Source: a virus. From it: a stretch of DNA of 64,000 bases. The translations under genes were made by a program, and so were the position numbers. Shown here in pieces: positions 9,684-41,643 of the stretch (within the stretch, counting starts at the first letter, position 1; every line of letters starts with the position of its first letter). The notes beneath the pieces are model-generated. The model saw only the letters and a list, made by a program, of their open reading frames with translations. It searched no databases and had not been told where the DNA came from. The stretch is from IMG/VR virus record IMGVR_UViG_3300010430_002753, positions 17,272 through 81,271 of that record. One strand, 5' to 3'.

Positions 9684-10004
9684 TTATTTTTTATTTAATA
9701 ATTTTAAATTTCTTTCTATATTTCTAAATTTAATTACTTTTGGATGTTTATCAAATTCTTCTTTTATATAATTTATTCCATCTATAAAATAATATTTTAT
9801 ACCAATATAATTCTGTATTCTAAGTTCTTCTGTAATTGGAATATCGAACGGTGTATTTATTAATGCAGGCCCACTTAAATTATGTAAATGTTCTATAAAG
9901 ATTGCTTGGATATCTTCATCATTATATACATAATCTATAAGTTCTTTGTCTGTTTTAAATTCATATTTAATTCCATAAAAATATGCAATAATATTTGTAT
10001 TCAT
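9684..10004 (-). CDS. HRLDGPA-like protein with C-terminal RNLKLLNK tag
   Basis: HNLSGPA; ends NIERNLKLLNKK. Confidence 0.8.
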   Translation of the reverse strand: MNTNIIAYFYGIKYEFKTDKELIDYVYNDEDIQAIFIEHLHNLSGPALINTPFDIPITEELRIQNYIGIKYYFIDGINYIKEEFDKHPKVIKFRNIERNLKLLNKK

Positions 10005-10297
10005 TATACGGTAGTAATTTCACCTGTAATAGAATTAATAGATATATTTTCACCATATTTTTTTCTTAAATCTATATTTATGAATTCATCAAGTTCTTTT
10101 TTAATTTTTGTAACTTCTTTAGATACTACAATTTTTTGTTCTTTTAAAGTTTCTAATTGATGTGTAATTTCACCTAATACTATTATAGTATTGTAATAAT
10201 TTTTATTATATTCTTTAATCTTATTTAATTCTTCTACTGTCAATTTATTATTACTTTCTTTTTCATTATTTCCAATTACTGACATATTATTCTCCAT
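10004..10297 (-). CDS. Hypothetical coiled-coil protein
   Basis: ORF after promoter; heptad-like helix; ends YGENISINSITGEI. Confidence 0.7.
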   Translation of the reverse strand: MENNMSVIGNNEKESNNKLTVEELNKIKEYNKNYYNTIIVLGEITHQLETLKEQKIVVSKEVTKIKKELDEFINIDLRKKYGENISINSITGEITTV

Positions 10298-10311
10298 TAT
10301 TTTTAATTTAT

Positions 10312-10340
10312 ATTATACATTACATAATTTTATTTGTCAA
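10312..10340 (-). promoter_or_regulatory. Sigma70-type promoter (repeat family)
   Basis: TAGTTGACA-N17-TATAAT. Confidence 0.82.
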
Positions 10341-10625
10341 CTATTCTTTATTCAATAAATATAAATTTCTTTGTATATTAAACTCTTTTTCTGATAATTC
10401 TTTACCTTTAATAAAATAGTAATTCTCTCCTTCACAGTCTCCAGTGTGATGTATTATTGCAGGACCTTTTAGATTATGTAAATGGTCTTTTTGACTATTT
10501 AGATATCCTTCATTACTTAATTGATGATGAGTCCAATTTTGTGATGATGTATATGAATACCATTCATAGCTATTTTTAAAATTATGTTCAATTCCTTCAT
10601 AAAATACTGTTACTTTGCCTATCAT
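10341..10625 (-). CDS. HRLDGPA-like protein with C-terminal tag
   Basis: HNLKGPA; ends NIQRNLYLLNKE. Confidence 0.8.
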   Translation of the reverse strand: MIGKVTVFYEGIEHNFKNSYEWYSYTSSQNWTHHQLSNEGYLNSQKDHLHNLKGPAIIHHTGDCEGENYYFIKGKELSEKEFNIQRNLYLLNKE

Positions 10626-10629
10626 AATA

Positions 10630-11430
10630 TTATTCGTAATCTTTATTATTAACTAAATTATTAATAATTGTATGATCTTTTTGAAATATAACACCTTCTA
10701 TAAATGTCCATTCATTATCTGATTTAATGCAAGTATTTCCATTCTTCCATTTATCTTCTAATTTTGCCCAATTATGACCTTTTTGAAAACACATTTCATG
10801 CATATCTTTTTGATTTTTACCATGTAATTCTTTATGCGAATATAACGATTGAGCTAACATTTGCATTGAATTTCTTATCCAGTCCTGCTGGCGCCAGACG
10901 AAATTATTACATACCTCTTCTCTAGGAATATTAAATGATCTACAATCAAATACTGCTAGTCTATTGTTTTCTATATATTTTATAATATCCTTATCAATAT
11001 CAACTGATGGATATTCTCCAAAACTTAATCCAAAATACTGCGTTCTGCTTTTTTCTTTAAAATATTCTAATAACATAAATTTATTAAACTCAGCAGAGGC
11101 TATACTTGGAGCAACACTACACATTTTTTGAACGTTATAATTAAACCAAGCATCTGTTGTTAATTTATCATAATCAGTTAATAGAATTGTAATCTCATCT
11201 GATTGAGTATAAGCTAATTTAGCACCTTGAATTTGTTCACATAATTTTTTAGTTGTATGTCTCATAGCTTCATTCATTAATTCCGAAAATGGTTTTTCGA
11301 AACTTTTAGTAAACGTGTGAAACGCCTTTCCGTCCAATCTAAGTATTACTGGAGTTCTTCTAGTTAAAAATGTTCTAGATCTAACTTCATAATTATTTTT
11401 CATTCTATCACCAAGTGATGTTTTATCCAT
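10630..11430 (-). CDS. thg1: tRNA(His) guanylyltransferase Thg1-like protein (3'-5' polymerase)
   Basis: LGDRMK..YE, RLDGKAFHTFT, YTQSDEI, FDCR and WRQQDWIRNS motifs. Confidence 0.95.
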   Translation of the reverse strand: MDKTSLGDRMKNNYEVRSRTFLTRRTPVILRLDGKAFHTFTKSFEKPFSELMNEAMRHTTKKLCEQIQGAKLAYTQSDEITILLTDYDKLTTDAWFNYNVQKMCSVAPSIASAEFNKFMLLEYFKEKSRTQYFGLSFGEYPSVDIDKDIIKYIENNRLAVFDCRSFNIPREEVCNNFVWRQQDWIRNSMQMLAQSLYSHKELHGKNQKDMHEMCFQKGHNWAKLEDKWKNGNTCIKSDNEWTFIEGVIFQKDHTIINNLVNNKDYE

Positions 11431-11432
11431 TA

Positions 11433-11732
11433 TTAATTCTCCTCTAATTCTTCTACTAATTCATGCAATATTCTAACTTCCATTAATTCATAACCATATT
11501 TATTAGCAAAATCTTTTATAAACTTAGGTGCATTTTGTATAGTGTTACTAAATATAAACGCCATTGATAAATTAACAGTTTGCATAGTTGGATTTATATT
11601 ATCAATATTAAAACTAATAAATTGATCTTGATTTTCAACATATAGATAACTGTAATTTCTACAAGTATCAGTTTCAGACTTTTTAGCTAAAACTAATCCA
11701 CGGTTTCTACTACCATGATTAAATACATTCAT
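11433..11732 (-). CDS. Hypothetical protein
   Basis: ORF with AAGGAG RBS. Confidence 0.65.
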   Translation of the reverse strand: MNVFNHGSRNRGLVLAKKSETDTCRNYSYLYVENQDQFISFNIDNINPTMQTVNLSMAFIFSNTIQNAPKFIKDFANKYGYELMEVRILHELVEELEEN

Positions 11733-11757
11733 AATGTACTCCTTTTATTTATTAATT

Positions 11758-12000
11758 TTAGCTATAATAAAAATCATAACCTTTCTTTCTAAAACTAGCA
11801 AGATACCAAAATTTTTCCCACCATTCTTTTCCTTCTAAGTGTGCAAGTTTTTCATTTTCGTTTACTGAATGAGATGTATATTTTGTTATTTCTAACATGC
11901 CAGTAAATACAGATTTTTCAGAAATTTTAACATAACAATATTTTTCTGCTATTTCTTTTTTTCTATTTCGTTTTTCTTTCTTATTTTTTTTCCAAAACAC
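11758..12000 (-). CDS. Hypothetical protein
   Basis: GTG start behind GGGAG, overlapping the upstream gene end. Confidence 0.6.
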   Translation of the reverse strand: MFWKKNKKEKRNRKKEIAEKYCYVKISEKSVFTGMLEITKYTSHSVNENEKLAHLEGKEWWEKFWYLASFRKKGYDFYYS

Positions 12001-12295
12001 AATTACTCCCCTTATTTAATAACCTTAAATTTCTTTTTATATTAAAATCTTTTTCTGGTATACATTTTCCATTTATATAATATGATTTATAATTATCATA
12101 TTTATCACTATTTGTCCATTTTATTGCTGGTCCATTTATATTGTGAAGAAAATCTGAGTGTTTATTATTGCCGTTTTCAAATTTATTATCTTTAATAACT
12201 TCATCCCATTTAGAAATAACATCTTCATCGTTATCACCAAAAAATATATACTTTGTTCCATTATACCAAACTTCAACTGATACTATCTTATTCAT
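11981..12295 (-). CDS. HRLDGPA-like protein with C-terminal tag and short extension
   Basis: HNINGPA; NIKRNLRLLNK followed by GSNCVLEKK. Confidence 0.78.
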   Translation of the reverse strand: MNKIVSVEVWYNGTKYIFFGDNDEDVISKWDEVIKDNKFENGNNKHSDFLHNINGPAIKWTNSDKYDNYKSYYINGKCIPEKDFNIKRNLRLLNKGSNCVLEKK

Positions 12296-13419: not shown

Positions 13420-13448
13420 AATATAATATCTATTAAAATATTTGTCAA
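13420..13448 (-). promoter_or_regulatory. Sigma70-type promoter (repeat family)
   Basis: TTTTTTAGTTGACA-N17-TATATT plus GTATTTATAAAT leader. Confidence 0.82.
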
Positions 13449-13463
13449 CTAAAAAATAAAAAA

Positions 13464-13487
13464 AGATCTATTTTTTATAATAGATCT
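13464..13487 (-). terminator. Intrinsic terminator ending the structural cluster
   Basis: AGATCTATT/AATAGATCT stem followed by a T tract on the minus strand. Confidence 0.65.
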
Positions 13488-13519
13488 CTTGTAAATTTAT
13501 TTTAATACGTATTAATTAG

Positions 13520-21480: not shown

Positions 21481-21556
21481 TGGAGACTGAGTAGGGAATT
21501 GAACCCTAAAATAACAATTTTGCAGACTGCTCCCTTGACCATTCGGGCACTCAGTC
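21481..21556 (-). tRNA. tRNA-Cys(GCA)
   Basis: Cloverleaf; anticodon loop CTGCAAA; encoded CCA. Confidence 0.9.
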
Positions 21557-21588
21557 ATAATTATGTGTGTAATATTTATAAATAAAAA

Positions 21589-21665
21589 TGGGGTGAAGGA
21601 GGAGGCTTGAACTCCCATATGCTGGATCCACAATCCAGTGCTTTACCAATTAAGCTACCTACACC
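21589..21665 (-). tRNA. tRNA-His(GTG) with encoded G-1 and C73
   Basis: Loop TTGTGGA; 5' G-GTGTAGG pairs with CCTTCAC-C-CCA. Confidence 0.92.
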
Positions 21666-21672
21666 ATAAAAG

Positions 21673-21759
21673 TACCTCTGACAGGGGTCGAACCTGTACG
21701 CTCCATTACAGAACCCTGGATTCTAAGTCCAGGATGACTACCAATTCCAACACAGAGGC
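21673..21759 (-). tRNA. tRNA-Leu(TAG), CCA not encoded
   Basis: Loop CTTAGAA, long variable arm; 3' end reads A-CT. Confidence 0.9.
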
Positions 21760-21820
21760 GTATATAAAAAATTTATTTTGTTTATGAATCATAACTTTCT
21801 TTTTGAAGCATTTTTACATC

Positions 21821-22060
21821 TTACTGCTTAAATAATATATCATCCATAATATCTAATATTTCTTGTTTGAATATTGTCCATACTTGTATATAAGGAATAT
21901 AATATTTTTCATACCTTTGTTTAGAATAATTTGCGGTATTTTCTTTGTAACTTTCTAAATGAATATCTATTAATTGGATTAAATGATTTAATTTACATAT
22001 ACTTAATTTTTTTAATTTTGATATTCTTTTAGGGTTTACACGTAATTTTATGATATCCAT
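21821..22060 (-). CDS. Hypothetical protein
   Basis: ORF with AGGT RBS. Confidence 0.55.
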   Translation of the reverse strand: MDIIKLRVNPKRISKLKKLSICKLNHLIQLIDIHLESYKENTANYSKQRYEKYYIPYIQVWTIFKQEILDIMDDILFKQ

Positions 22061-22069
22061 AAATTATAC

Positions 22070-22876
22070 CTACTTATATAATTTTAAAAATTTAAAAAAT
22101 TTTGGCCATTCTCTTCTAGGTTTCAATACTAATATAACTTCTTTCTTATCGAATTGTAATTCAGTAATTACAAACCAATCATCGCCAAAAGTTTTTGCTT
22201 TTTCAAATTGTTCTTCAGTTACTTTACAAGTAACTTTTCTAAATGAATCAGAATACCACTCTTGCATAATAGGATCACTATATTCTGGCCAATGTTTATT
22301 AATGGCACATCCAGCATGAGTAGCACTATTAATTGAATGTCCAACATCTACCCAATCTTTAATTAAAACATACATTTTTAAAGGCTGTACAGCATTTTTA
22401 TTGTCGTCTGTTATTTTCATACAATGATTCCAAGCTTCTACTGTATATCTATTTCCTTCTAAATAATTATTATAATCTGTTTTAGCGAATGCAATACATG
22501 AGTTATCGTCATTAATATGAATAACGTATCTTTTTTGACTTTTAATATATTCATTATTCCATACATGCATTAATTTAACATCTGTTTTAAATGTTTTATT
22601 ATTTTTTAATTTCATATTATTTTCCAATAGTTCTTGAGATTTTTCATAATCATAACTAATATACCAATTTGGATAAAAACATGGTTCGTGTTTAGAATTA
22701 AAAATTTTAGTTACTGTTTCCCAATAACTTTCTTCTTGTTCTAACTTTTCATCATTATGCCATATCCTAAATATATCTTCAACTTCACAATATTCAACAC
22801 CAATACATAGATCTGGATAAATATTTTTAATTTCTTCTATACCATCATTAATACCGTTTATTAATTTATGATCCAT
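22070..22876 (-). CDS. Fusion protein with C-terminal Pth2-like peptidyl-tRNA hydrolase domain
   Basis: C-terminal about 100 aa: KMYVLIK...GHSINSATHA...W...FRKVTCKV...LVLKP...LKLY, matching the Pth2 pattern. Confidence 0.7.
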   Translation of the reverse strand: MDHKLINGINDGIEEIKNIYPDLCIGVEYCEVEDIFRIWHNDEKLEQEESYWETVTKIFNSKHEPCFYPNWYISYDYEKSQELLENNMKLKNNKTFKTDVKLMHVWNNEYIKSQKRYVIHINDDNSCIAFAKTDYNNYLEGNRYTVEAWNHCMKITDDNKNAVQPLKMYVLIKDWVDVGHSINSATHAGCAINKHWPEYSDPIMQEWYSDSFRKVTCKVTEEQFEKAKTFGDDWFVITELQFDKKEVILVLKPRREWPKFFKFLKLYK

Positions 22877-23013
22877 TATAATTCCTTATTCAACTTCTAT
22901 TAATTCAAAATTAGCAAAATCATATATTTTATTATTTAACATAAAGAATTTAAAATTAAATTCATTAATATTATATTCATATTAACCTCTATTATAAATT
23001 TTTTATTATAAAC

Positions 23014-23042
23014 ATTATATTGTATAATTAAATAAATGTCAA
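23014..23042 (-). promoter_or_regulatory. Sigma70-type promoter (repeat family)
   Basis: TAGTTGACA-N17-TATAAT. Confidence 0.8.
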
Positions 23043-23050
23043 CTAATAAA

Positions 23051-23470
23051 TTATATTTTTTTATTTAATAATCCTTCATATACTTTTCTATAACATAACA
23101 TATTAGGAATATATCTACTATTATTTCCAAAATATTCTGAATCATCACCATTAAAATAATTAGATATAGCTGCAGCAACACCAGAACTTCTAGAAATTCC
23201 AGCATCACAAGATATAATAAAATCTTTATTTATATTACTTAAAATAAATTCTATAATACGATCAACATCATTATCAGAAATTGTATTATATTTATCTATT
23301 TTTTCTTCTATATCATAAAATCTTAAATATATTATATCACATCTATTTTCATTTTTAAATTCAGTAAACATAGATGGATCTTGTATTGATATAATACAAA
23401 CATCTTTATCTATTTGTTTATTAAATAACTTATTCTGCAAATCTAATTTTGATAAAACTTTTATATTCAT
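23051..23470 (-). CDS. Cys-dependent (tyrosine/dual-specificity) phosphatase-like protein
   Basis: CX5R-type loop SCDAGISRS; IISIQDP; LRFYDI; PNML. Confidence 0.85.
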   Translation of the reverse strand: MNIKVLSKLDLQNKLFNKQIDKDVCIISIQDPSMFTEFKNENRCDIIYLRFYDIEEKIDKYNTISDNDVDRIIEFILSNINKDFIISCDAGISRSSGVAAAISNYFNGDDSEYFGNNSRYIPNMLCYRKVYEGLLNKKI

Positions 23471-23496
23471 TAATTATACCTCCATAACTTAAAAAA

Positions 23497-23573
23497 TGGT
23501 GGGCCTTGTTGGACTCGAACCAACGACTTCCTGTTTATGAGACAGGATTTCTAACCAACTGAAATAAAGGCCC
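23497..23573 (-). tRNA. tRNA-CAT, probably Ile2 (lysidine) rather than Met
   Basis: Loop CTCATAA; acceptor GGGCCTT/AAGGCCC-A-CCA is Ile-like. Confidence 0.85.
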
Positions 23574-23574
23574 G

Positions 23575-23647
23575 CTTCCCAGACAGGATTTGAACCTGCA
23601 ACAATTGGATTAGAAATCCAATGCTCATCCACTTGAGCTTCTGGGAT
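23575..23647 (-). tRNA. tRNA-Arg(TCT), CCA not encoded, abuts the next tRNA
   Basis: Loop TTTCTAA; 1:72 mismatch; about 1 nt from the 5' end of tRNA-CAT. Confidence 0.82.
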
Positions 23648-23754
23648 ATAAAAATAAAAGAAGATAATTTAGTAGTCCAAAATATCTTCAAGAACACTTA
23701 TCAATTTGAGCTTCATTTTATAGAGAGGCTTAATAAGTTTATTTTATAGTAAAA

Positions 23755-23842
23755 TGGCGGAGATTATAGGACTCGAACCTATATATCCTTTTCAGAACGC
23801 TAGATTAGCAATCTAGTGCAATACCAATTATGCGAAATCTCC
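23755..23842 (-). tRNA. tRNA-Ser(GCT)
   Basis: Loop TTGCTAA, long variable arm, G73, CCA. Confidence 0.9.
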
Positions 23843-23848
23843 AAAAAT

Positions 23849-24172
23849 TTATTTATTTTTTATAAATATTCTTAAACATTCTTTTTTCCAATCAAATCCC
23901 CATTGTCGAATACCAATTATGTTAGATCTTAAGTCTTCAAGTATATTATTTATTTCATATTTTTCTGTTTTTTCTAGTTTGCTATTATTAATAATATTTT
24001 GAATTTTATTTATTGACGGACATTGCATTTGTGGAGATTCATCTATATTAAAATAATTATCTATATTAGGTTTTTTACCAATAATCTTATAAAAATTATC
24101 TCTTAATGTTTTATAATATATTATTGAATTATATCTAAGTATTTTAACAAATAATCGTTTTAAATATTTCAT
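23849..24172 (-). CDS. Hypothetical protein (start at MKYLKR, not inside the tRNA)
   Basis: AGGAG RBS before the ATG; the ORF-track extension runs into tRNA-Ser. Confidence 0.6.
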   Translation of the reverse strand: MKYLKRLFVKILRYNSIIYYKTLRDNFYKIIGKKPNIDNYFNIDESPQMQCPSINKIQNIINNSKLEKTEKYEINNILEDLRSNIIGIRQWGFDWKKECLRIFIKNK

Positions 24173-24189
24173 ATATCTCCTATTAAAAA

Positions 24190-24275
24190 TGGCAGAGAAG
24201 GTGGGATTCGAACCCACGGAGCCGTCACTCACTGGTTTTCAAAACCAGCTCCTTAAACCACTCGGACACTTCTCT
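24190..24275 (-). tRNA. tRNA-Ser(TGA)
   Basis: Loop TTTGAAA, long variable arm, G73, CCA. Confidence 0.92.
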
Positions 24276-24290
24276 ATATTAAAAATTTGT

Positions 24291-24487
24291 TTTCTTTTAG
24301 ATAATGATCTATCATAACAAATATAATTTAACATCTAATTCTACTAGTTTAAATTAGACTTTATATTTACAAGAATCTACACAACTCTCTTATCAAGATA
24401 TTGGCTACGCCAGTTTTTGGTCTATTATATTAATTACTCTAGAAATAAATTAATACGATATTTTTCAAGATCATTATCTAAAAGAAA
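24291..24487 (-). ncRNA. Candidate structured RNA or hairpin element closed by a 20-bp perfect inverted repeat
   Basis: TTTCTTTTAGATAATGATCT...AGATCATTATCTAAAAGAAA with internal hairpins; no ORF. Confidence 0.45.
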
Positions 24488-24488
24488 T

Positions 24489-24564
24489 TGGTGGAGCTGG
24501 TCGGACTTGAACCGACGGCCTTCTGCTTGCAAAGCAGACACTCTTCCAACTGAGTTACAACCCC
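24489..24564 (-). tRNA. tRNA-Ala(TGC)
   Basis: Loop TTTGCAA; G3:U70; CCA. Confidence 0.93.
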
Positions 24565-24572
24565 ATTTTAAT

Positions 24573-24713
24573 TTAATCATTTAAATTTTGTTTTAAATAT
24601 TTACGTAAAGATTTTCTACCTTTTTTCTTAAACCAACGTTTATTCTTTGTATGACATTCATCTGGATGCGCTGGTCTTTTTCTTGAATATAATTTCTTTG
24701 TCGATTTCTTCAT
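24573..24713 (-). CDS. 46-aa very basic protein MKKSTKKLYSRKRPAHPDECHTKNKRWFKKKGRKSLRKYLKQNLND
   Basis: Below the ORF-track cutoff; GGAAGG RBS; translated by hand. Confidence 0.6.
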   Translation of the reverse strand: MKKSTKKLYSRKRPAHPDECHTKNKRWFKKKGRKSLRKYLKQNLND

Positions 24714-24725
24714 AATATAACCTTC

Positions 24726-24914: not shown

Positions 24915-24925
24915 TAATAATTTCC

Positions 24926-26418: not shown

Positions 26419-26450
26419 ATTAAAATCATTTAATAAAAAATTAATAAAAA

Positions 26451-26530: not shown

Positions 26531-26548
26531 TAAAAATTTAATATAAAG

Positions 26549-26621
26549 CAGACCATAAAGGACTTGAACCCTTATCTCAGGATTTGGAATCCCACATTCT
26601 AGCCAATTGAACTAATGATCT
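26549..26621 (-). tRNA. tRNA-Trp(CCA), CCA end not encoded
   Basis: Loop TTCCAAA; 3' end reads G-CT. Confidence 0.85.
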
Positions 26622-26628
26622 ATAAAAA

Positions 26629-26713
26629 TGGTGATCCCAGTTGGACTCGAACCAACGCTGTCAAAGACTCCTGCTTAAAAGGCAGGTGCGTTACCAACTA
26701 CGCGTATAGGATC
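26629..26713 (-). tRNA. tRNA-Lys(TTT) with extended variable arm
   Basis: Loop CTTTTAA; extra GTC-TTT-GAC hairpin; CCA. Confidence 0.9.
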
Positions 26714-26760
26714 ATTTATTTAAATTAATTTATAAATTAAAATAAATTAATTTAAATAAA

Positions 26761-27235
26761 GATCTCAGGTTTAAGGATTTTCGACCCAGAGATCTGAGTA
26801 TCTCCATGCTATTAGATTGATCAATCTGATAAGTTCTTATAGTGTGTTTTACAGCAGAACTTATTAATGTTCTTAAATTTGCAATGCTATTTCATTAATA
26901 GAGTTTGTTACGTTTCTATTAATAGGCATATATTTTCTATTGCTAATTCCTGAAACTGTTCACACAATAACCTGACCAATAGAATCAATGTTTGCGTCAA
27001 TCCAACTCAAAGTAACAATACTGAGTTAGTTATCTCATTGCCTCGCCTTTCCGAGTTAAAAATTGTAACTGGCACGAAAGAATGCTTTAATCTATATTAA
27101 GCTATCAATTAAATTATTTGAATAAACAAACTTTTCAATTTTGTGGGATTAGATAATCACCCATATCTTTCTTCGTGAGAGTTATTTCTTTCGAGTCAGC
27201 CAACTAGAACTAGTCTAGGATGAGCTTCGATACTT
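26761..27235 (-). ncRNA. Candidate large structured ncRNA (about 470 nt) within the tRNA array
   Basis: No ORF; GC above background; 5' AGTATC pairs with near-3' GATACT; many internal hairpins; terminal GATCTC/GAGATC hairpin. Confidence 0.6.
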
Positions 27236-27247
27236 TTTAAATAAAAA

Positions 27248-27326
27248 TGGAATCGCAGATGGGAATCGAACCCACAAACTTTACCGTGAAAGGGTAATGA
27301 CTCTAACCTAATTCGTCTACTGCGAC
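27248..27326 (-). tRNA. tRNA-Glu(TTC)
   Basis: Loop CTTTCAC; CCA. Confidence 0.88.
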
Positions 27327-27414
27327 ATAAAAATATTTCAATATTAATATCTAATAAAACATTTATAGTTGTATTAGCATTTATAATTATCTTCCATATT
27401 GAAATATTTTAAAA

Positions 27415-27489
27415 TGGTAGCGGAGATGGAATTCGAATCCATATATCACGGGATATGAACCCGTTGAGTTGCCAGTACTCTACTCCGCT
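27415..27489 (-). tRNA. tRNA-fMet(CAT), initiator type
   Basis: Three consecutive G:C pairs in the anticodon stem (ACGGG/CCCGT); CCA. Confidence 0.88.
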
Positions 27490-27495
27490 ATAAAA

Positions 27496-27571
27496 TGGCT
27501 AACCAGGTGGGACTTGGACCCACATACTTTCGATTAACAGTCGAACGCTAAACCAATTTAGCTACTGGTCA
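27496..27571 (-). tRNA. tRNA-Asn(GTT)
   Basis: Loop CTGTTAA; U1:A72; G73; CCA. Confidence 0.9.
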
Positions 27572-27577
27572 ATAAAA

Positions 27578-27663
27578 TGGTATTCCCAATAGGACTTGAA
27601 CCTATACACCATAAAGATACAAGATCTTAAATCTTGTGTGCCTACCAATTACACCATGGGAAC
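27578..27663 (-). tRNA. tRNA-Leu(TAA)
   Basis: Loop TTTAAGA; long variable arm; CCA. Confidence 0.9.
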
Positions 27664-27719
27664 ATAAAAATATTTATTTAAATTAATCTACAAATTAAAA
27701 TAAATTAATTTGAATAAAA

Positions 27720-27796
27720 TGGAGCCAAATCTCGGACTCAAACCGAGGACCCGATGCTTACAAGGCAACTGCTCTAATCAACTGAGCTAATTTGGC
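27720..27796 (-). tRNA. tRNA-Thr(TGT)
   Basis: Loop CTTGTAA; CCA. Confidence 0.9.
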
Positions 27797-27806
27797 ATTA
27801 AATATA

Positions 27807-27895
27807 TTATTTGCGGTAGGTAGGATTCGAACCTACGATACTTTCATTTGTATGAATGTGTTTTCCTTTTACACTATCTATAGTTCCGCAAATAA
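27807..27895 (-). ncRNA. Aberrant tRNA-like RNA (shrunken anticodon loop, bulged and extended closing stem, no CCA)
   Basis: Canonical T arm GTAGG-TTCGAAT-CCTAC; D-like arm; TTCAT-ACAA-ATGAA hairpin; TTATTTGCGG/CCGCAAATAA closing stem. Confidence 0.6.
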
Positions 27896-27900
27896 AAAAG

Positions 27901-27971
27901 TTAGTCTGTGTAGAATCGAACTACAACTATTAGGACCAAAACCTAATGCACTACCATTATGCAACAGACCA
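27901..27971 (-). tRNA. tRNA-Gln(TTG), CCA not encoded
   Basis: Loop TTTTGGT; U1:A72. Confidence 0.85.
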
Positions 27972-28538: not shown

Positions 28539-28901
28539 TTATTTTTTATTTAATAATTTTAAATTTCTATTAATATTTCTAAATTTAATAACTTCTGGGC
28601 GTTTATAGAACTCTTCTTTTGAATAACTTTTACCATTGATATAATAATATGCATGTTCTATTTCTCCAGATCTATTATACCAAATCATTGCTGGTCCATT
28701 TAATCGGTGTCGTTTTCTATTTATACAATATTGCATAGCTTCTATTTTGCCAGATTTATAATATTTAATCTCTGCGGGACCATATAAATTGTGAATATAA
28801 TCATTTTTGTTATAATACATATCATGCATAATTTTAGTATCTTTATCATCATAATATACAATTCTTCTGTAATTACCATTTTCTAATTCAATTCTTTTCA
28901 T
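28539..28901 (-). CDS. HRLDGPA-repeat protein with C-terminal tag
   Basis: HNLYGPA, HRLNGPA; ends NINRNLKLLNKK. Confidence 0.85.
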   Translation of the reverse strand: MKRIELENGNYRRIVYYDDKDTKIMHDMYYNKNDYIHNLYGPAEIKYYKSGKIEAMQYCINRKRHRLNGPAMIWYNRSGEIEHAYYYINGKSYSKEEFYKRPEVIKFRNINRNLKLLNKK

Positions 28902-28928
28902 AAATTAAACCTTATTGAAGTTAATATT

Positions 28929-32328: not shown

Positions 32329-32598
32329 TTATTCCTTATTTAATAATTTTAAGTTTATATTTACGTTTATAATTTTATTTGATTCTATTATCCAATCTTC
32401 TTTTGAATATTCTATGCCGTTTAAAAAATATGTTTCATTTGTTTGTGTTTCAAATATGTTATAAAAAATTCTAGCTGGTCCATCTAATCTATGTATTTCA
32501 TCTTCTAAATTATAATAAATTTCACTGTATTTTGTTGTTTTTTCTATATCCCAATAATTTAATCTTTTATAATTTCCATTTTCTAATTCTATTTTCAT
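32329..32598 (-). CDS. HRLDGPA protein with C-terminal tag
   Basis: HRLDGPA; ends NVNINLKLLNKE. Confidence 0.82.
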   Translation of the reverse strand: MKIELENGNYKRLNYWDIEKTTKYSEIYYNLEDEIHRLDGPARIFYNIFETQTNETYFLNGIEYSKEDWIIESNKIINVNINLKLLNKE

Positions 32599-32600
32599 AA

Positions 32601-33086
32601 TTAAACCTTATTTAATAATCTTAAATTTCTTTGAATATTAACAGTTTTGATATCATTTTTATCTATTATTTTATCTTTATATTTATAAAATTCATAAGCT
32701 ATATTTTTTTCATTATATACATTTTCATAATCTTCGTAATCAATTATTTCTATACATACAGTATCTATAGAATTAATTATTTCATTATTTTCATTTAATT
32801 TTATTATAATATTATTGTAAGAATAAAAATCATCTTCAGGTATATTTTCCTTAACCATAGAATTTTCAATACATATTGTATATTCATCAAATTCAATATG
32901 TATATTATTATTTTTATATTTTATAGTTCCAGTAAAATAATCACTATAATCCTCACAACTTAAAGAAAATCTATCTAAATAAGGAAGTTGTAATAATAAT
33001 TGTAAACCTTTTTCTCCAATAAAATACTCTAAAATTTTATTTAAATCATTTATAAATTTTTCTTTAAATAATAATTCTTTCAACAT
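32601..33086 (-). CDS. Hypothetical protein carrying the C-terminal tag without a GPA repeat
   Basis: Ends NIQRNLRLLNKV. Confidence 0.75.
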   Translation of the reverse strand: MLKELLFKEKFINDLNKILEYFIGEKGLQLLLQLPYLDRFSLSCEDYSDYFTGTIKYKNNNIHIEFDEYTICIENSMVKENIPEDDFYSYNNIIIKLNENNEIINSIDTVCIEIIDYEDYENVYNEKNIAYEFYKYKDKIIDKNDIKTVNIQRNLRLLNKV

Positions 33087-33089: not shown

Positions 33090-33401
33090 TTAATCCTTTT
33101 GCAATAACCTTAAATTTCTTTGTATATTAAATTCTTTTTCTGAACATCTTGTATTATCAATATAAAAAGATTCACAAAATACTTTTTCATTTTCATCATA
33201 CCAAATACAAGATGGACCGTTTAATCTATGAACAAATCCATGTTTATTCCATTCTTTATAAGCTATATTATTATTACTGTCGTAACATATTTTACTTGGT
33301 TTATCATTATAAGAATGAAGAAAACCTTCTTCGTCTAATAATTCTAATCTAATCAATTTAAATAATTTATTATATATTTTTTTATATTTAATGTTTAACA
33401 T
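33090..33401 (-). CDS. HRLDGPA-repeat protein with C-terminal tag
   Basis: HSYNDKPS, HRLNGPS; ends NIQRNLRLLQKD. Confidence 0.8.
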   Translation of the reverse strand: MLNIKYKKIYNKLFKLIRLELLDEEGFLHSYNDKPSKICYDSNNNIAYKEWNKHGFVHRLNGPSCIWYDENEKVFCESFYIDNTRCSEKEFNIQRNLRLLQKD

Positions 33402-34134
33402 ACCCGTGTTTTCTCATTTCACTAAGAATTTCAGATTTTTTATTTAATACTTTATCAAATAATGTTTGTAATTTATTAGCTGGTTTACCATTGTTATGTT
33501 TACTTATAATTTGTAAACGTAATTCGTGAGCTCTTTTCATTAAAGAATTATATAATTCTCTATATTCAGACTTTGATAATTCATCATTAATATCTTCTTC
33601 AGAAATGCTTTTTTGTTTTTTAATTTTTTTAAGTTCTTCTTTAAACGTATATTTTTTATCAGAGCTTTTATCAGGTAAAGATCTATAATATTTATCCATA
33701 CCTTTTTTATCTTTTTCATAACATTTAAATGCTTTACTTCTTGTGGTATGTTTCTTTTTACATACAAGACAGCCTGTATTAAAATGTTTTTCACTAGATA
33801 ATGTAAATTTTTTATTACTACTATAATCTGGCAATGATCTAAAATACCATTCTGTTTTATCTTCTGTTTCACCGCCAAATAATTGAGATTCTTCCCAACA
33901 CTTATATGCCTTTGCTCTACTTACGTGTTTTTTACCGCAAATAGGACAATGTTGTATTACACCATAGTCTTTTTTCTTTTCTTCTACAACATCTTTAAAT
34001 TCTGGATATTCTCTACTACCTCTTAATGTATTATAATAATCTACCATTTCTGGCTTTAATAGATAAAAATCCATTAAACATTTATGAGCCTGTCTTCTTG
34101 TTGTATGAGATTTACTACATACTGGACAATTCAT
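33388..34134 (-). CDS. Protein with three CxxC-x3-H-x8-C putative zinc-finger repeats
   Basis: CPVCSKSHTTRRQAHKC, CPICGKKHVSRAKAYKC, CLVCKKKHTTRSKAFKC. Confidence 0.8.
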   Translation of the reverse strand: MNCPVCSKSHTTRRQAHKCLMDFYLLKPEMVDYYNTLRGSREYPEFKDVVEEKKKDYGVIQHCPICGKKHVSRAKAYKCWEESQLFGGETEDKTEWYFRSLPDYSSNKKFTLSSEKHFNTGCLVCKKKHTTRSKAFKCYEKDKKGMDKYYRSLPDKSSDKKYTFKEELKKIKKQKSISEEDINDELSKSEYRELYNSLMKRAHELRLQIISKHNNGKPANKLQTLFDKVLNKKSEILSEMRKHGYVKH

Positions 34135-34194: not shown

Positions 34195-34401
34195 CTACTT
34201 TTTATTTAATAGTCTAAAATTTCTATTAATATTTCTTATGTTATTTAACTCTTTTTTAAAATCAAATAGTGGATTATACAATTCATAAAATGAAATAAAT
34301 AATAAATCAATTGATTCATTTTCAATTTCACAAAGTTGATCATCTGAATATTTTGATAGTCTATTTAGAACTGCTTTTAAGATTTTATTTTTATTTCTCA
34401 T
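34195..34401 (-). CDS. 68-aa protein carrying the C-terminal tag without a GPA repeat
   Basis: Ends NINRNFRLLNKK. Confidence 0.7.
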   Translation of the reverse strand: MRNKNKILKAVLNRLSKYSDDQLCEIENESIDLLFISFYELYNPLFDFKKELNNIRNINRNFRLLNKK

Positions 34402-37383: not shown

Positions 37384-37698
37384 TTATTTTTTATTTAATA
37401 ACTTTAAGTTTCTTATAATATTTGCTTCTTTTTTCCAATCGTCAATATTATTAAAACGTATACCATTTATATAATACCATCCACCATATATTTCTCCAGA
37501 TTCATAATATCTAATCTCAGCTGGTCCATCTAATCTGTGTAATTTATTATTTATATAATATGTTTCAGTTCTTATTTCTCCAGATTCATTATACCAAATA
37601 GATGCTGGACCGTCAATTCTATGTTTTTTACCATTTTTATAAAATTCTAGTTTTTTAACAGTTTCACCATTTTTATAATATTCAATTATTTCTTCCAC
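37384..37698 (-). CDS. HRLDGPA-repeat protein with C-terminal tag
   Basis: HRIDGPA, HRLDGPA; ends NIIRNLKLLNKK. Confidence 0.85.
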   Translation of the reverse strand: MEEIIEYYKNGETVKKLEFYKNGKKHRIDGPASIWYNESGEIRTETYYINNKLHRLDGPAEIRYYESGEIYGGWYYINGIRFNNIDDWKKEANIIRNLKLLNKK

Positions 37699-37700: not shown

Positions 37701-39101
37701 TTAAACCTTATTTAAAAGTTTTAATAATTCTTCTTTAGATATATTAGGATTTTCCATAAAAATATCTTCAGCTTTTCTCATATACTCACCAACTTTAATT
37801 CCTGGTTTAATATTAAATGTATTAATAATATCTTTTCCAGAAATAGGCATTGATACTGGTTCATGTTTTTCTTTTAGTTCAGCAATTCTTTTTGCTATAT
37901 TCGGAACTTGATAAGGTAAACAATGTTCAGGTGCATGAGAAATATTATCTGCGTGAATAACTTCTAATAATTCTGTTAATAGATTACCTGATAATTTAAT
38001 TAACTTTCTTATTGATTTATCTTTAATGTTTAAAGTTTCATTTCCCCATTGTTTAGTATGCATATGATTTTTGACAATAAAAGAAACACTATCAACTATT
38101 TCATTCTCATACTTTAATCTTTTTAAAATATCAATAACCATAGTTTCACTAAGAGTATTATGATCTATAAAACTATAATCATTTTTATCAGAATTCCATA
38201 CTCTAGTTTTTAATTTACCAATATCATGTAATAACGCAGATAGTCTAACAACTAATTTATTTTCATTTTCTAGTATTGGTTTTTTAACAACGGCTTGTAA
38301 TACGTCAAATAAATGATTAAATAAATCTGCAGAATGATATTCGTTTTGTTTAAAATCTATAGTTTCAATTAATTCTGGAATAATATAATTAATTAATCCA
38401 GTTTTTACTAAATAATATAATCCATTTAAACAATTATCAGATAACATTATTTTTGTAAATTCACTATTAATTCTCTCTTTTGATAAAATTTCTGTAGATT
38501 TATAATTTCTAATTATTGAATCGTATACATCTTTAGTTAATTTAAATCCTCTTGTAGAAAATCTAATAGCTCTTAACATTCTTAAAGGATCTTCTTTAAA
38601 AATACTATCAGGATCTGATGTTGTATTTAAAACATTATTACCTAAATCATTAATACCATTTCCAGTAAAATCTTCTAATTTATTTAAAGATATATTATAC
38701 ATTAAAGAATTAATAGTAAAATCTCTTCTTACTGCATCTTGCTCTATTGTTCCAAATTTAACTAATGGTTTTCTACTACCTTCTTCATACGCTTCTTGCC
38801 TACTCATCACAGATTCAAAATCTAAATCACTATTAGGTAATCTAAAATTAGCAGTTCCAAATCTTCCAAAGATTACTGGATTGCTATCTTTTTTATATAC
38901 TCCTAATTTCCTTGTTAAATATTCTGCTAATGCAACACCACCCATTGGTAAATTTACAACAATATCAATATCTTTAATTTCTTTCTTTTTTAACAAAATA
39001 TCTCTTACCGCGCCACCTACTATATATACCTTATTCTCAAATTGAGTATCTATAATATGCTTATTGATACTTTCAGATATTTTAAATAATCTTTCTAACA
39101 T
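37701..39101 (-). CDS. cca: CCA-adding tRNA nucleotidyltransferase with HD domain
   Basis: VGGAVRD, DIDIV, RRDFTIN, EDPLRMLRAIRF, ERINSE and LLHDIGK motifs. Confidence 0.93.
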   Translation of the reverse strand: MLERLFKISESINKHIIDTQFENKVYIVGGAVRDILLKKKEIKDIDIVVNLPMGGVALAEYLTRKLGVYKKDSNPVIFGRFGTANFRLPNSDLDFESVMSRQEAYEEGSRKPLVKFGTIEQDAVRRDFTINSLMYNISLNKLEDFTGNGINDLGNNVLNTTSDPDSIFKEDPLRMLRAIRFSTRGFKLTKDVYDSIIRNYKSTEILSKERINSEFTKIMLSDNCLNGLYYLVKTGLINYIIPELIETIDFKQNEYHSADLFNHLFDVLQAVVKKPILENENKLVVRLSALLHDIGKLKTRVWNSDKNDYSFIDHNTLSETMVIDILKRLKYENEIVDSVSFIVKNHMHTKQWGNETLNIKDKSIRKLIKLSGNLLTELLEVIHADNISHAPEHCLPYQVPNIAKRIAELKEKHEPVSMPISGKDIINTFNIKPGIKVGEYMRKAEDIFMENPNISKEELLKLLNKV

Positions 39102-39163: not shown

Positions 39164-39424
39164 TTATTTTTTATTTAATAATTTTAAATTTCTATTTATA
39201 TTAATTAGTTTATTAAATTCTTCTTTTTCATATTCGTTTCCATTTAAATAATAATATTCACTAATAATTCCACCATTTTTATGATGCCAAATTACAGTTG
39301 GCCCGTCTAATCTATGTCTTTCATCTTTTGAATTATAATAACATTCACTTTCTATTTTTTTTTCTTCTTTATCATAATATCTTATGTTTTTATAACAATC
39401 ATTTCCTAATTTTATAATTTTCAT
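39164..39424 (-). CDS. HRLDGPA protein with C-terminal tag
   Basis: HRLDGPT; ends NINRNLKLLNKK. Confidence 0.85.
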   Translation of the reverse strand: MKIIKLGNDCYKNIRYYDKEEKKIESECYYNSKDERHRLDGPTVIWHHKNGGIISEYYYLNGNEYEKEEFNKLININRNLKLLNKK

Positions 39425-39748: not shown

Positions 39749-40012
39749 CTATTTTTTATTTAATAACTTTAAGTTTCTATTTATATTAATTTTTTTATTA
39801 TACTCTTCTTTTGAATAACTTTTACCATTTATCCAATAATGTTCACCTCTTATTTCTCCAGATCTATAATACCAAATTCTAGCTGGTCCATCTAATCTAT
39901 GAAGTTTTCTATTTATATAATACACTTCACTTTCTATTTTAGTTTTCTCTACATCATGATAATATATTTTTTTATAACAACCGTTTTCTAATTCAATTCT
40001 TTTCATTTTCAT
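39749..40012 (-). CDS. HRLDGPA protein with C-terminal tag
   Basis: HRLDGPA; ends NINRNLKLLNKK. Confidence 0.85.
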   Translation of the reverse strand: MKMKRIELENGCYKKIYYHDVEKTKIESEVYYINRKLHRLDGPARIWYYRSGEIRGEHYWINGKSYSKEEYNKKININRNLKLLNKK

Positions 40013-40042
40013 AATTAAACCTCTCTTTTTATTTATAAATAC

Positions 40043-40071
40043 AATATAAATTATACATAAAAATATGTCAA
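40043..40071 (-). promoter_or_regulatory. Sigma70-type promoter (repeat family)
   Basis: TTTTTTAGTTGACA-N17-TATATT plus GTATTTATAAAT leader. Confidence 0.82.
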
Positions 40072-40079
40072 CTAAAAAA

Positions 40080-40559
40080 TTATTTTTTATCTAATAACTT
40101 TAAATTTACTTGTATTTTAAAATCTTTTAAATTTTTACATCTAATTCTTTTTCCATTATAATAATATCGTATATAAGGATTAGGAGACATTGAATTATAC
40201 GCATTCATATATGATTCTAAATCTAAAACAGTAAATGCTGTATTTTCATCATATATAGTAGATGTAATCCAAGCTGGTCCGTTTATATTATGTAATTTTC
40301 CATCTTTATATTTTTTAAAACTAAATTCTGAACTTACAAAATTTACATAATTAATATATTCTTTTATAAATGTATTTACCAATTTTTTTGATGTCATTTG
40401 AATAATAATCTTAAACGTATCAAATACTATCAAATAATTATAATCAGATCCGTAATAATCGTGTATTTCTAATTTTGTATCAATATCAAATAATTTAATG
40501 TGACCAATTTTTGATGCAGATTTTATAATTTTATCTTTTAATTCTATTGATATTTTCAT
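40080..40559 (-). CDS. GPA-motif protein with variant C-terminal tag
   Basis: HNINGPA; ends KIQVNLKLLDKK; paralog of 41125-41643. Confidence 0.78.
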   Translation of the reverse strand: MKISIELKDKIIKSASKIGHIKLFDIDTKLEIHDYYGSDYNYLIVFDTFKIIIQMTSKKLVNTFIKEYINYVNFVSSEFSFKKYKDGKLHNINGPAWITSTIYDENTAFTVLDLESYMNAYNSMSPNPYIRYYYNGKRIRCKNLKDFKIQVNLKLLDKK

Positions 40560-40847
40560 TTAATCTTCAAATGTTATAATAGGATTTCTGCAAGTATTAT
40601 CTTTTTTATTTACTTTTAATTCTGCGTACACAGTTTTTATGTCTCTATTTTTGTTCCAATATTCTATAACAAAATTATAAGAATTGTCTATTTTTGATTT
40701 TATGCCTTTATAATTAATATTTTTTATATTAAAAAAATCATCTTTAAACTTATCATACATAACTCTAATAAATGCACCATTAACGTTATCAGCAATTTCT
40801 TCTGTATTTACGCCACCACTTGTACTAAATCTAAATTGTTGTTGCAT
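40560..40847 (-). CDS. Hypothetical protein
   Basis: AAGGAG RBS supplied by the end of the upstream tag. Confidence 0.7.
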   Translation of the reverse strand: MQQQFRFSTSGGVNTEEIADNVNGAFIRVMYDKFKDDFFNIKNINYKGIKSKIDNSYNFVIEYWNKNRDIKTVYAELKVNKKDNTCRNPIITFED

Positions 40848-40849
40848 AT

Positions 40850-41122
40850 TTACTCCTTATTTAATAACTTTAAATTTCTGTTTATATTAATTATTTTAAT
40901 TACTTCTGAATGTTTATAGAATTCTTTTTTTGAATATTCTTTACCGTTTATCCAATAATCTTTATTATATATTTTACCAGATTTATAATACCAATTTTTA
41001 GCTGGTCCTTCTAATCTATGTGATTCACCATTTGAATTATAATAATATTCATAATGAATTTTTCCATTTTCATGATAATGTATTTTTTTATAATTTCCAT
41101 TTTCTAACTTAATTCTTTTCAT
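40850..41122 (-). CDS. HRLDGPA protein with C-terminal tag
   Basis: HRLEGPA; ends NINRNLKLLNKE. Confidence 0.85.
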   Translation of the reverse strand: MKRIKLENGNYKKIHYHENGKIHYEYYYNSNGESHRLEGPAKNWYYKSGKIYNKDYWINGKEYSKKEFYKHSEVIKIININRNLKLLNKE

Positions 41123-41124
41123 AA

Positions 41125-41643
41125 TTAAACCTTATTTAATAACTTTAAATTTCTATTTATATTATATATTTTATCAAAATCTTTTTTATCTAACCCTCTT
41201 CCATGTAATTCATAATAATGTTCACAACATAAAGCTTTTCTATATTTAAAATATTCTTCATTTATATATTTTTTAGGATCTATAATATATTCATTCCAAA
41301 AATAATTAGAATTCATACTATTAAAATATACTCTGCTTGGACCTAAATCATTATGATATTTACCATTTTTTAAAAATTTAATAGTAAATGGCGATATTAC
41401 ATATTTTAAATATTTTCCATATTTTAAATGAATAATATTATTAATATATGTTGCCTTTGTATTTACTATTTCAATTTTAAATGTTTCAAAACATAATATA
41501 TAATAACTTTTATCGGCACCTTCATATTGTTTTAATTTTCCTATTGGATCTTTAACATTTAATATAGAATAATTAATATAATTATCTTTAAAATGTTTTT
41601 CAAAATGTTTTTTTAATTCTTTTTGAGTAATAATTTTTTTCAT
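41125..41643 (-). CDS. GPA-motif protein with C-terminal tag
   Basis: HNDLGPS; ends NINRNLKLLNKV. Confidence 0.8.
   Translation of the reverse strand: MKKIITQKELKKHFEKHFKDNYINYSILNVKDPIGKLKQYEGADKSYYILCFETFKIEIVNTKATYINNIIHLKYGKYLKYVISPFTIKFLKNGKYHNDLGPSRVYFNSMNSNYFWNEYIIDPKKYINEEYFKYRKALCCEHYYELHGRGLDKKDFDKIYNINRNLKLLNKV

Follow-up and report, generated by a model that had tools for sequence, protein, structure and literature searches.

A conserved C-terminal helix tag on small proteins of a marine-sediment phage clade: a candidate docking module

Why do so many small and otherwise divergent proteins of one phage end in nearly the same dozen residues? The question is raised by a 64,000-nt stretch of DNA, here called the window, which covers positions 17,272 to 81,271 of the IMG/VR virus record IMGVR_UViG_3300010430_002753. 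The record is 81,271 bp long, is classed as linear, and has a CheckV completeness of 33, so the complete phage genome is probably about three times the size of this fragment. An initial annotation of the window had named 14 open reading frames (ORFs), spread between 9684 and 41643, that share a C-terminal peptide tag. All 14 are present on the minus strand, and each ends in the pattern NIxRNLKLLNK plus one residue. Our reading, which we hold tentatively and with somewhat less than even confidence, is that the tag is a portable docking helix that would give many variable early proteins one shared interaction. Below, positions are those of the window, while contig positions are those of the whole record; an ORF is named by its first window position.

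Occurrence of the tag and selection on its peptide

A hidden Markov model (HMM) of the 12-residue tail was run on all six-frame ORFs of at least 30 aa in the whole record. It matched 25 ORFs with scores of 8.8–24.3 bits, and the next best match was at 5.1 bits. All 25 are on the minus strand, 14 in the window and 11 upstream of it, so the first count, though each of its members exists, was too low. The match lies at the extreme C-terminus in 24 of the 25, the exception being ORF 11981, and no copy at or above 8.8 bits was found in another frame or outside an ORF end anywhere in the six-frame record. By a greedy ORF count, the tagged genes are 25 of 130 minus-strand ORFs and 25 of the 89 ORFs of 40–175 aa, and they take up 10.4% of the bases. 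They had been described as dispersed; instead, they are clustered in arrays (contig 1021-4157, 5293-5888, 49600-50672, and 56435-58914), together with some single genes. A 33-nt consensus of the tag DNA, allowing up to three mismatches, has six matches in the window and none in 100 dinucleotide-preserving shuffles. The repeat H-[RN]-x-x-G-P-[AST] occurs once or twice in 12 of the 14 window carriers and is missing from ORFs 32601 and 34195, exactly as first reported.

For the codon comparison, we used 79 distinct tagged proteins from the record and related contigs, which have 75 distinct 3′ DNAs. Over the ten conserved codons of the tag, these 75 copies depart from the consensus 34, 23, and 144 times at codon positions 1, 2, and 3, respectively, and 15 of the 34 departures at position 1 are Leu TTA/CTN exchanges. 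The codon differences are synonymous in 134 cases vs. 37 that are non-synonymous. The x position of the tag is free (41% identity), and the Lys three residues upstream of N-I is 96% conserved.

The proportions of synonymous (pS) and non-synonymous (pN) differences were obtained by Nei–Gojobori-type counts on the 20 repeat-bearing paralogues of the record. The tag has pS = 0.46 and pN = 0.093, or 0.39 and 0.061 when the x position and the last Lys are left out, and the bodies have pS = 0.43 and pN = 0.41. The two best-conserved segments of the repeat family are the N-terminal hairpin and the tag; compared over the same 10 members, the hairpin has pS = 0.36 and pN = 0.14 vs. 0.48 and 0.049 for the tag. 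When nine conserved codons are drawn independently from the codon usage of the phage itself, the expected pS of the tag is 0.50, with a 2.5–97.5% range of 0.369–0.634, and the observed value of 0.393 is inside this range. Within the limits of the extreme codon bias, the synonymous sites of the tag are fully scrambled, and their divergence equals that of the bodies. Because the pS of the tag is at codon-usage equilibrium, there is neither conservation at the DNA level nor recent gene conversion. The tag is thus under strong purifying selection as a peptide and not as DNA. The initial annotation had argued for selection on the peptide while allowing that conservation might track the DNA; it follows the reading frame, with position 3 far more variable than position 2, a low pN, and a pS like that of the bodies.

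The shared helix, its bodies, and its distribution

The body of the main family was modeled with AlphaFold2 (AF2) for its 87-aa canonical one-repeat member, ORF 39749..40012, with a 26-row alignment. The model has a mean per-residue confidence (pLDDT) of 89.8 and consists of six strands in stacked β-hairpins, followed by a single helix at residues 68–84. The confidence declines to 81, and then to 64, across the tag, even though the tag is the best-conserved segment. The structural neighbors of the model in BFVD are MORN-repeat and YwqK-like proteins of giant viruses, together with many proteins of uncultured phages (best E = 7.9e-4). The neighbors in the Atlas are phage MORN_2-variant clusters, with a score of 0.93 and template-modeling (TM) scores of 0.72–0.77, and a Foldseek search of the PDB gave nothing at E ≤ 0.001, only weak matches. 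As modeled, then, the body has the stacked β-hairpin fold of annotated MORN/MORN_2 proteins. In Pfam, MORN_2 (PF07661) is matched by one of ten scanned carriers, ORF 37384, at 16.6 bits and E = 0.0086, which is below the gathering threshold of 29.6. Nothing exceeds the cut-off in the 19 tagged proteins scanned (10 + 9), and these scans gave no F-box or PRANC family. PHROGs gave no families for 10 of 10 tagged proteins.

An HMM of the body without the helix matches 24 ORFs in the record (21 tagged, 3 untagged) and misses 4 tagged ORFs. The MORN-like β-hairpin body is therefore present in 21 of the 25 carriers. The best illustration of an untagged member is the 464-aa ORF at 4108..5502 on the minus strand, which scores 202.7 bits with the body HMM. 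This protein consists of three fused family units and an unrelated C-terminal domain of about 130 aa, and the tag positions between its units have decayed (for example, ...KEEFNKKINKNKEEH...). It looks like a natural control in which the body has persisted without the tag. A second untagged family ORF ends right after the last hairpin.

The four tagged ORFs that have no repeat body were compared with the repeat family by hhalign. ORF 32601, entered as its own family alignment, aligns with the repeat family only over the last 30 columns (93%), and ORF 34195 only over its last 20 residues (85%). The ORF at contig 16215 aligns over its last 17 residues only (68%), and that at contig 5637 over its last 19 only (94.5%). 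ORFs 32601 and 34195 are not full-length homologs of the family, which would have refuted a portable tag, and the proposal that the tag is a portable module has held up, the tag being without the repeat body on 4 ORFs and the repeat body without the tag on 3. The alignments indicate that the tag is found on non-homologous bodies and is also missing from some family bodies. They show, in addition, that what is portable is the C-terminal helix, together with the last hairpin in one family, and that the shared module comprises 17–30 residues with the tag at its end, rather than the roughly 12 residues first described. The AF2 model of ORF 32601 itself is poor (pLDDT 49.4), and an Atlas search with its body reached TM scores of at most 0.51, with no usable feature match.

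The linker between a KEEF anchor and the tag has three lengths, one of them with a proline (KHPEVIKF), which speaks against the tag being packed in a fixed way on the protein that carries it. On a helical wheel, the conserved Ile, Leu, Leu, two Asn, Lys, Leu, and Arg would occupy over half of the perimeter, and x and the two positions before N-I, which are free, would lie along one arc, as is expected for a helix that is gripped in a groove or a bundle.

How widely does the tag occur? A word-indexed search returned 23 relatives, all from this record or from a few JGI/ENA metagenome contigs; one of these, P0023, is untagged and has a different C-terminal end. Pattern scans found one 45-kb IMG/VR contig and 24 metagenome loci, and a pattern scan of genome contigs gave 13 matches, none of which is a relative. 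The contigs L005, L016, and L028 are near-identical relatives. The tail HMM has 88 matches on the related loci, representing 64 distinct proteins. By body BLAST, the 79 distinct tagged proteins comprise 63 in the repeat family, 7 that are like ORF 32601, and 9 singles. A profile of the last 32 residues was then run against 1.84 billion representative proteins and gave 34 clusters at E ≤ 0.001. All 34 matches are C-terminal, one of them ending 9 residues early; ten clusters were fetched, and seven more were recognized by their ids, as belonging to this clade, and the rest were assigned by their lengths only. Since this wide search matches only the one clade, the tag appears to be a lineage-specific invention of these phages. 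A full-text literature search found no description of the tag, in agreement with the earlier view that it is not a described system.

Two of the nine singles, both on related loci, are other kinds of protein that end in the tag. On L023, the tag ends a protein (3855-4226, plus strand) that is predicted to span the membrane twice and has a Lar-like zinc ribbon match (PF14354, E = 0.0045). On L013, it ends a P-loop, KaiC-like protein (3015-3668, plus strand; E = 0.005). Both of these Pfam matches are below the cut-off.

Gene-end junctions, individual genes, and their surroundings

The DNA that follows the tag takes two forms. At 9 junctions, the end AAA AAA TAA, or the TAG stop of TAGTTGACA, runs straight into T6-AG-TTGACA, a 17-nt spacer, and TATAxT, as in a σ70-like promoter. 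At the other type, with 15 copies, the next start codon is within about 20 nt of the tag, typically as AAG GTT TAA TT ATG or AAG GAG TAA AT ATG, and here the last Lys codon and the final residue appear to form the Shine–Dalgarno site of the next gene. AAG is used for the last Lys in 13 copies, none of which is promoter-linked, and 12 of the 13 begin a Shine–Dalgarno-like AAGG or AAGA. The last residue, K, V, or E, is thus dictated by DNA signals, either a Shine–Dalgarno site or a stop welded to a σ70-like promoter. Because it is set by these junctions, the terminal K/V/E lies outside the peptide signal, of which it had been counted as a part, and the AAA/AAG variation at the last Lys, at first taken for free synonymous drift, follows the same signals. 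The true last residue is free (K, V, E, R, I, D, A, and F all occur), and extensions of 1–9 residues are found.

The promoter sequence (T6)AGTTGACA-N17-TATAxT has 23 copies in the record, all in gene orientation. Nine of the 23 are behind a tagged gene, and the other 14 share only a AATAATTTTTT stretch or a terminator hairpin; conversely, 15 of the 25 tags have no promoter behind them. Since promoters occur without tags and tags without promoters, the tag is not a part of the promoter. The promoter at 9647..9683 (minus strand), welded to the stop of ORF 9684, is representative, with T6-AG-TTGACA, a 17-nt spacer, and TATGTT. From the alignment of 3′ ends, similar tag-linked AGTTGACA copies start near 10342, 28532, 34196, 37377, 39157, and 40073. 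Two copies that are not linked to a tag, at 41698 and 13450, were folded and have upstream hairpins of −11.2 and −11.4 kcal/mol (z = −2.9 and −3.25), and, unlike these two, the tag-linked promoters show no significant hairpin. A 9-bp all-AU hairpin between the tag and the T-run of the promoter was considered as a terminator and rejected, as its energy is −3.5 kcal/mol (z = −0.66) and 53 of 200 shuffles are as good. The structural gene blocks are without these σ70-like promoters. Because the tagged genes are transcribed from what look like host-type promoters, they are probably expressed early. Note that several AGTTGACA copies are located behind hairpin terminators, and that the stretches 41690-41740 and 13442-13492 (minus strand) are examples of such terminator–promoter units.

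Among the tagged genes of the window that have a promoter behind them, ORF 9684..10004 encodes 106 aa with one HNLSGPA repeat and ends in ...KHPKVIKFRNIERNLKLLNKK, with the tag as its last 12 codons. ORF 10341..10625 (94 aa, one repeat) ends in NIQRNLYLLNKE, and TAGTTGACA begins with its TAG stop; the TAG stop of ORF 34195..34401, a protein of 68 aa without a repeat, is also inside TAGTTGACA. ORF 28539..28901 (120 aa, two repeats) has the long form of the linker, ...KRPEVIKFRNINRNLKLLNKK, before its promoter. In ORF 39164..39424 (86 aa, one repeat), the tag DNA is identical to the 33-nt consensus, and a promoter follows. ORF 37384..37698, the source of the sub-threshold MORN_2 match, has a GTG start and encodes 104 aa with two repeats. 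ORF 40080..40559 (159 aa) has a divergent N-terminal half and one repeat, HNINGPA, and ends in KIQVNLKLLDKK.

Other tagged genes are coupled closely to the next gene or depart from the usual pattern. The 172-aa product of ORF 41125..41643 is divergent in its N-terminal half, has a single weak repeat (HNDLGPS), and ends in NINRNLKLLNKV; AAG GTT TAA TT ATG couples this gene to ORF 40850..41122. The latter (90 aa, one repeat) ends in ...NLKLLNKE, where AAG GAG TAA provides the Shine–Dalgarno site of the next gene. Three tagged genes are found together at 32329..32598, 32601..33086, and 33090..33401. The first of these encodes 89 aa with one repeat and has the weakest tag, NVNINLKLLNKE, at 8.8 bits. 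The second encodes 161 aa without the HRxxGPA repeat and belongs to the second family, of 7 tagged proteins, and the third encodes 103 aa with one repeat, HRLNGPS, and ends in NIQRNLRLLQKD. ORF 11981..12295 (104 aa, one repeat) has lost its usual stop, so that 8 further residues come after the tag NIKRNLRLLNKG, or about 9 beyond where the stop would normally be.

There are also traces of how the tag may have spread. The weaker tag versions first noted, at the ends of the CCA enzyme and of ORF 28929, are real. A half tag is found at 37701..37727 (minus strand), at the 3′ end of the gene for a CCA-adding enzyme, which ends in ...SKEELLKLLNKV (LLKLLNKV) and is coupled to the GTG-started family gene. 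The last 26 nt of the CCA gene and its junction match the 3′ half of the canonical tag with its junction; this half tag is probably a recombination scar. An intergenic remnant, AATATTAACTTCAATAAGGTTTAATTT, occupies the 27 nt at 28902..28928 (minus strand) after the stop of ORF 28929. It reads NINFNKV-stop and looks like a tag whose middle has been deleted, with the usual junction to the next ATG. The half tag and the remnant fit a gain and loss of cassettes at repeated junctions.

What kind of phage carries these genes? The stretch is contained in two DNA runs of marine-sediment metagenomes. The window is AT-rich, with a GC content of 0.20–0.30, and its minus strand carries almost all of the genes. 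The fragment encodes gp32-like, RecA/UvsX-like, and DnaB-like proteins, a 5′–3′ exonuclease, DHH proteins, a chaperonin, and ribonucleotide reductase. Furthermore, it has a CCA/poly(A)-polymerase-family enzyme with an HD domain, a Thg1-family enzyme, a PRPP-synthetase-like protein, a metallophosphatase, a VWA_2 protein, and a HAD_SAK_2 RNA-repair domain. The 21 tRNA genes of the fragment form an array at 21481-27971 (minus strand) that adjoins the Thg1-family, CCA-family, HAD_SAK_2, and metallophosphatase genes. From this gene content, the phage appears to be equipped with a large tRNA supply and a repair kit. It seems to have no close cultured relative. The best identity of its RecA-like protein is 43.5%, to a Microcystis phage homolog, and tblastn of the canonical tagged protein against 50,697 phage records gave no match. 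A megablast of 20 kb matched only three Vibrio phages, over 127 nt of the chaperonin gene.

Two further ORFs are of interest as neighbors. A 139-aa ORF at 23051-23470 (minus strand) has a CDAGISRS motif and no Pfam match, and it is a candidate Cys-based phosphatase. It ends in ...EGLLNKKI with a promoter immediately behind, and this end faintly recalls the last residues of the tag. Between two tagged genes, at 33388-34134 (minus strand), there is a 248-aa protein, also without a Pfam match, with three zinc-finger-like units of the form CP(V/I)C...H(T/V)(T/S)R...KC.

Possible functions of the tag

What is the function of the tag? We propose that it is the conserved end of a C-terminal helix of about 17–20 residues, with the layout K-E-E-F, variable linker, and K-x-x-N-I-x-R-N-L-K-L-L-N-K. 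This helix would act as a protein–protein docking handle on a lineage-specific panel of small proteins, most of which would be fast-diverging MORN-like β-hairpin binders, transcribed from host-type (σ70-like) promoters and probably early. As a variable body is joined to the same handle, one reader could recognize all of the carriers. The reader might belong to the host, or the phage itself might encode it in the two-thirds or so of the genome that is absent from the record. The module would probably have spread by recombination at the repeated 3′ junctions, and its last two codons would have been co-opted as a Shine–Dalgarno site or as a stop-plus-promoter junction. We infer all three of the functional elements of this proposal: binding outside the tagged protein itself, a shared reader, and early timing. 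A more specific version seems to us unlikely. In it, the tag would be the address label of a dedicated sorting or adaptor system, in which one reader, of the host or from the missing part of the genome, brings several dozen small effectors, the bulk of them evolvable MORN-like binders, to one place or machine, such as a protease, the site of DNA entry at the membrane, or a replication/transcription factory.

A number of points weigh against the docking proposal. No partner was identified. The terminal helix could simply stabilize very small proteins, which would also yield selection at the peptide level, and the lower pLDDT of the modeled helix is weak evidence that it is free. As the tag is confined to a single clade, it could be a peculiarity of this lineage for which no dedicated reader exists. 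The pN/pS of about 1 in the bodies comes from saturated sites and noisy alignments among old paralogues, and therefore does not show diversifying selection. The related loci were fetched by the tag pattern, so that the share of non-repeat carriers is not an unbiased estimate, and some of the single clusters are short or possibly truncated ORFs. As the model of ORF 32601 is poor, the 'unrelated fold' of the second family is an assignment by sequence methods, and early expression is read from the type of promoter.

Several other readings would keep the peptide as the selected unit. The tag helices might bind one another, as a short zipper or bundle element, to give homo- or hetero-oligomers or multivalent mixed assemblies, in which a membrane-anchored carrier could recruit soluble ones. 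The narrow Ile/Leu/Leu stripe with i, i+4, i+7 spacing and invariant Asn flanks, the conserved surface over more than half of the helix, and the pairing of N-terminal hairpin and tag as the two most conserved segments of the repeat family all suit this idea. So does the L023 carrier, which looks like a two-span membrane protein with the tag after a basic loop, on the presumed cytoplasmic side. We nevertheless consider it quite unlikely, as about 12 conserved residues are short for a stable coiled coil, like helices with a net charge of +4 to +6 should repel, and no positive evidence for self-association was obtained; co-folding of two copies of the 87-aa protein, with its alignment, scored 0.00 in both runs, which we count neither way. 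It is distinctly unlikely, in our judgment, that the tag is a basic amphipathic helix for a non-protein surface, either nucleic acid or the inner membrane, which the C-terminal targeting helices of MinD and FtsA bind. The tag is terminal, with a net charge of +6 over its last 15 residues and a hydrophobic moment of 0.52 over its last 12, and MORN repeats are classically associated with membranes. However, 5000 shuffles gave a moment of 0.32 ± 0.16, and 12.8% of them reach 0.52, so the value is not unusual for this composition, and we dropped the moment as a discriminating feature. Such helices also usually keep only their character, whereas in the tag even the residue order is almost fixed, three Asn included, and one carrier seems to own two membrane spans. 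As a common degron, the tag would have the early proteins removed at a set time by a protease of the host or the phage; short-lived phage regulators recognized through their tails, such as λ O, MuA, and λ CII, are well known, and a C-terminal, exposed, basic, hydrophobic tail on proteins behind early-type promoters would be in keeping with this. We find it improbable, since the free last residue and the extensions of 1–9 residues misfit reading from a free C-terminus, where ssrA/MuA-type signals have conserved last residues, and twelve nearly invariant positions far exceed the need of known degrons. About as improbable is that the tag has no separate function and is the inherited end-piece of an expanding family, kept for stabilizing tiny proteins and passed on incidentally to other bodies by recombination at the repeated 3′ junctions. 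The membership of 21 of the 25 carriers in one family agrees with it, as do the repeated junction DNA (AAG GTT TAA TT ATG or AAA AAA TAA T6 AGTTGACA), the half tag of the CCA gene with its canonical junction, the deleted remnant after ORF 28929, and the presence of PeSL-like terminator–promoter cassettes (see below). Yet the body is able to fold and endure untagged, as in 3 ORFs and P0023, the linker varies in length, and accidental fusions would not hold the tag at a pN of 0.06 with saturated synonymous sites.

A role in the virion, with the tag as an address for capsid loading and co-injection in the manner of the T4 capsid targeting sequence or the encapsulin cargo peptides, is very improbable. 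It would explain why, in a probably very large phage, so many unrelated small proteins share a short terminal tag, and packaging or injection had been among the uses first suggested. It is disfavored by the position of the tagged genes behind σ70-like promoters in non-structural regions and by the apparent two-span membrane carrier of a relative. No cleavage motif was found, nor a match to the T4-type prohead protease profile, in a fragment that is about one-third of the genome and with two of the controls of the clamp and protease searches matching no control genomes. Finally, the conservation might belong to the DNA or RNA, as an UP element, a terminator, a recombination site, or a translational enhancer, with the peptide incidental. 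The double use of the last two codons at the junctions, the distribution of AAG at the last Lys, and the all-AU hairpin that can be drawn between the tag and the T-run could be cited for it. Against these are the third-position variation with pS at codon-usage equilibrium, the promoters without tags and tags without promoters, a hairpin that is no better than those of shuffles, and the restriction of copies to the ends of ORFs in their own frame. This possibility is extremely remote, and we regard it as close to refuted.

The docking helix can be compared with known terminal modules. The poxvirus ANK/PRANC proteins and the repeat-plus-F-box adaptors of giant viruses also have many paralogues, with a variable repeat body and a constant C-terminal module; the F-box or PRANC is a three-helix domain of about 40–50 residues, with Skp1 as a known reader. 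The likeness is in the number of paralogues per viral genome and in the union of a variable binding body with one constant C-terminal module, for which a single docking partner is presumed. The difference is that here the module is a single helix of 17–20 residues with no Pfam family match, in a phage with a bacterial host. The F-box-like adaptor idea of the initial annotation, and the partners that it named (protease, RNA polymerase, GroEL, and a vWA protein), can therefore be taken as analogy only. A second group of modules is the C-terminal tethers, which include the XB peptide of SspB on the ClpX N-domain, the clamp tails of T4 gp43, gp55, and gp33, and the bacterial motif QL[SD]LF. Like these, the tag is a short, terminal, linker-attached handle, common to unrelated proteins, with a core of L, basic, hydrophobic, hydrophobic. 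It differs in being longer and helical, as modeled, and its core, NLKLL, has neither the Gln nor the aromatic residue of the clamp motif. The clamp profiles PF02916 and PF00712 had no match in this fragment of about one-third of the genome, and PF02916 matched no control genomes either; because the record is a fragment and two controls matched no control genomes, the clamp and prohead-protease searches are uninformative.

Shell address peptides, such as the T4 capsid targeting sequence, encapsulin cargo-loading peptides, and the encapsulation helices of microcompartments, resemble the tag as terminal peptides or amphipathic helices of 10–20 residues on unrelated proteins, and those systems have one reader. 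Here, in contrast, the tagged genes are behind early-type promoters and outside the structural modules, and one carrier is membrane-like. The MORN_2/YwqK-type proteins (PF07661) appear to share the kind of fold predicted for the body of 21 of the 25 carriers; the definition of that family includes neither the HRxDGPA repeat signature nor the constant C-terminal helix. Terminal docking and address tags are thus a known kind of element, and this tag seems to have no detectable relation to any of them. The DNA context has a parallel of its own. Arbiol et al. (2010, PMC2839356) describe the PeSLs of T4-type phages as strong σ70-like promoters, often with a stem-loop terminator, that are repeated among small non-essential genes and are thought to drive modular shuffling. 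The 23 AGTTGACA promoters of this record, with significant upstream hairpins at both of the two that were folded, are similar. On the other hand, PeSLs are non-coding, whereas nine promoters here are welded to a coding tag without a significant hairpin, and it is from the half tag and the remnant that we infer recombination. The architecture of a repeated promoter and terminator among small variable genes thus seems to be present in a non-T4 marine-sediment phage.

For the biology of this phage, about one-fifth of the genes on the fragment, and more than one-fourth of its small genes, carry one nearly invariant peptide while their surroundings drift. The locus is also a clean example of dual coding, in which the ribosome-binding site or promoter of the next gene determines the final two codons of a peptide under selection. 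A peptide of 12–20 residues is a simple experimental entry to a large block of phage 'dark matter', and the catch of a tag bait would assign a place or a machine to dozens of unknown proteins at once. If there is a single reader, then this would be the equivalent, in a virus of bacteria, of the repeat-plus-F-box adaptor libraries of eukaryotic viruses or of a dockerin-type assembly, and the MORN-like bodies would be a natural library of small binders.

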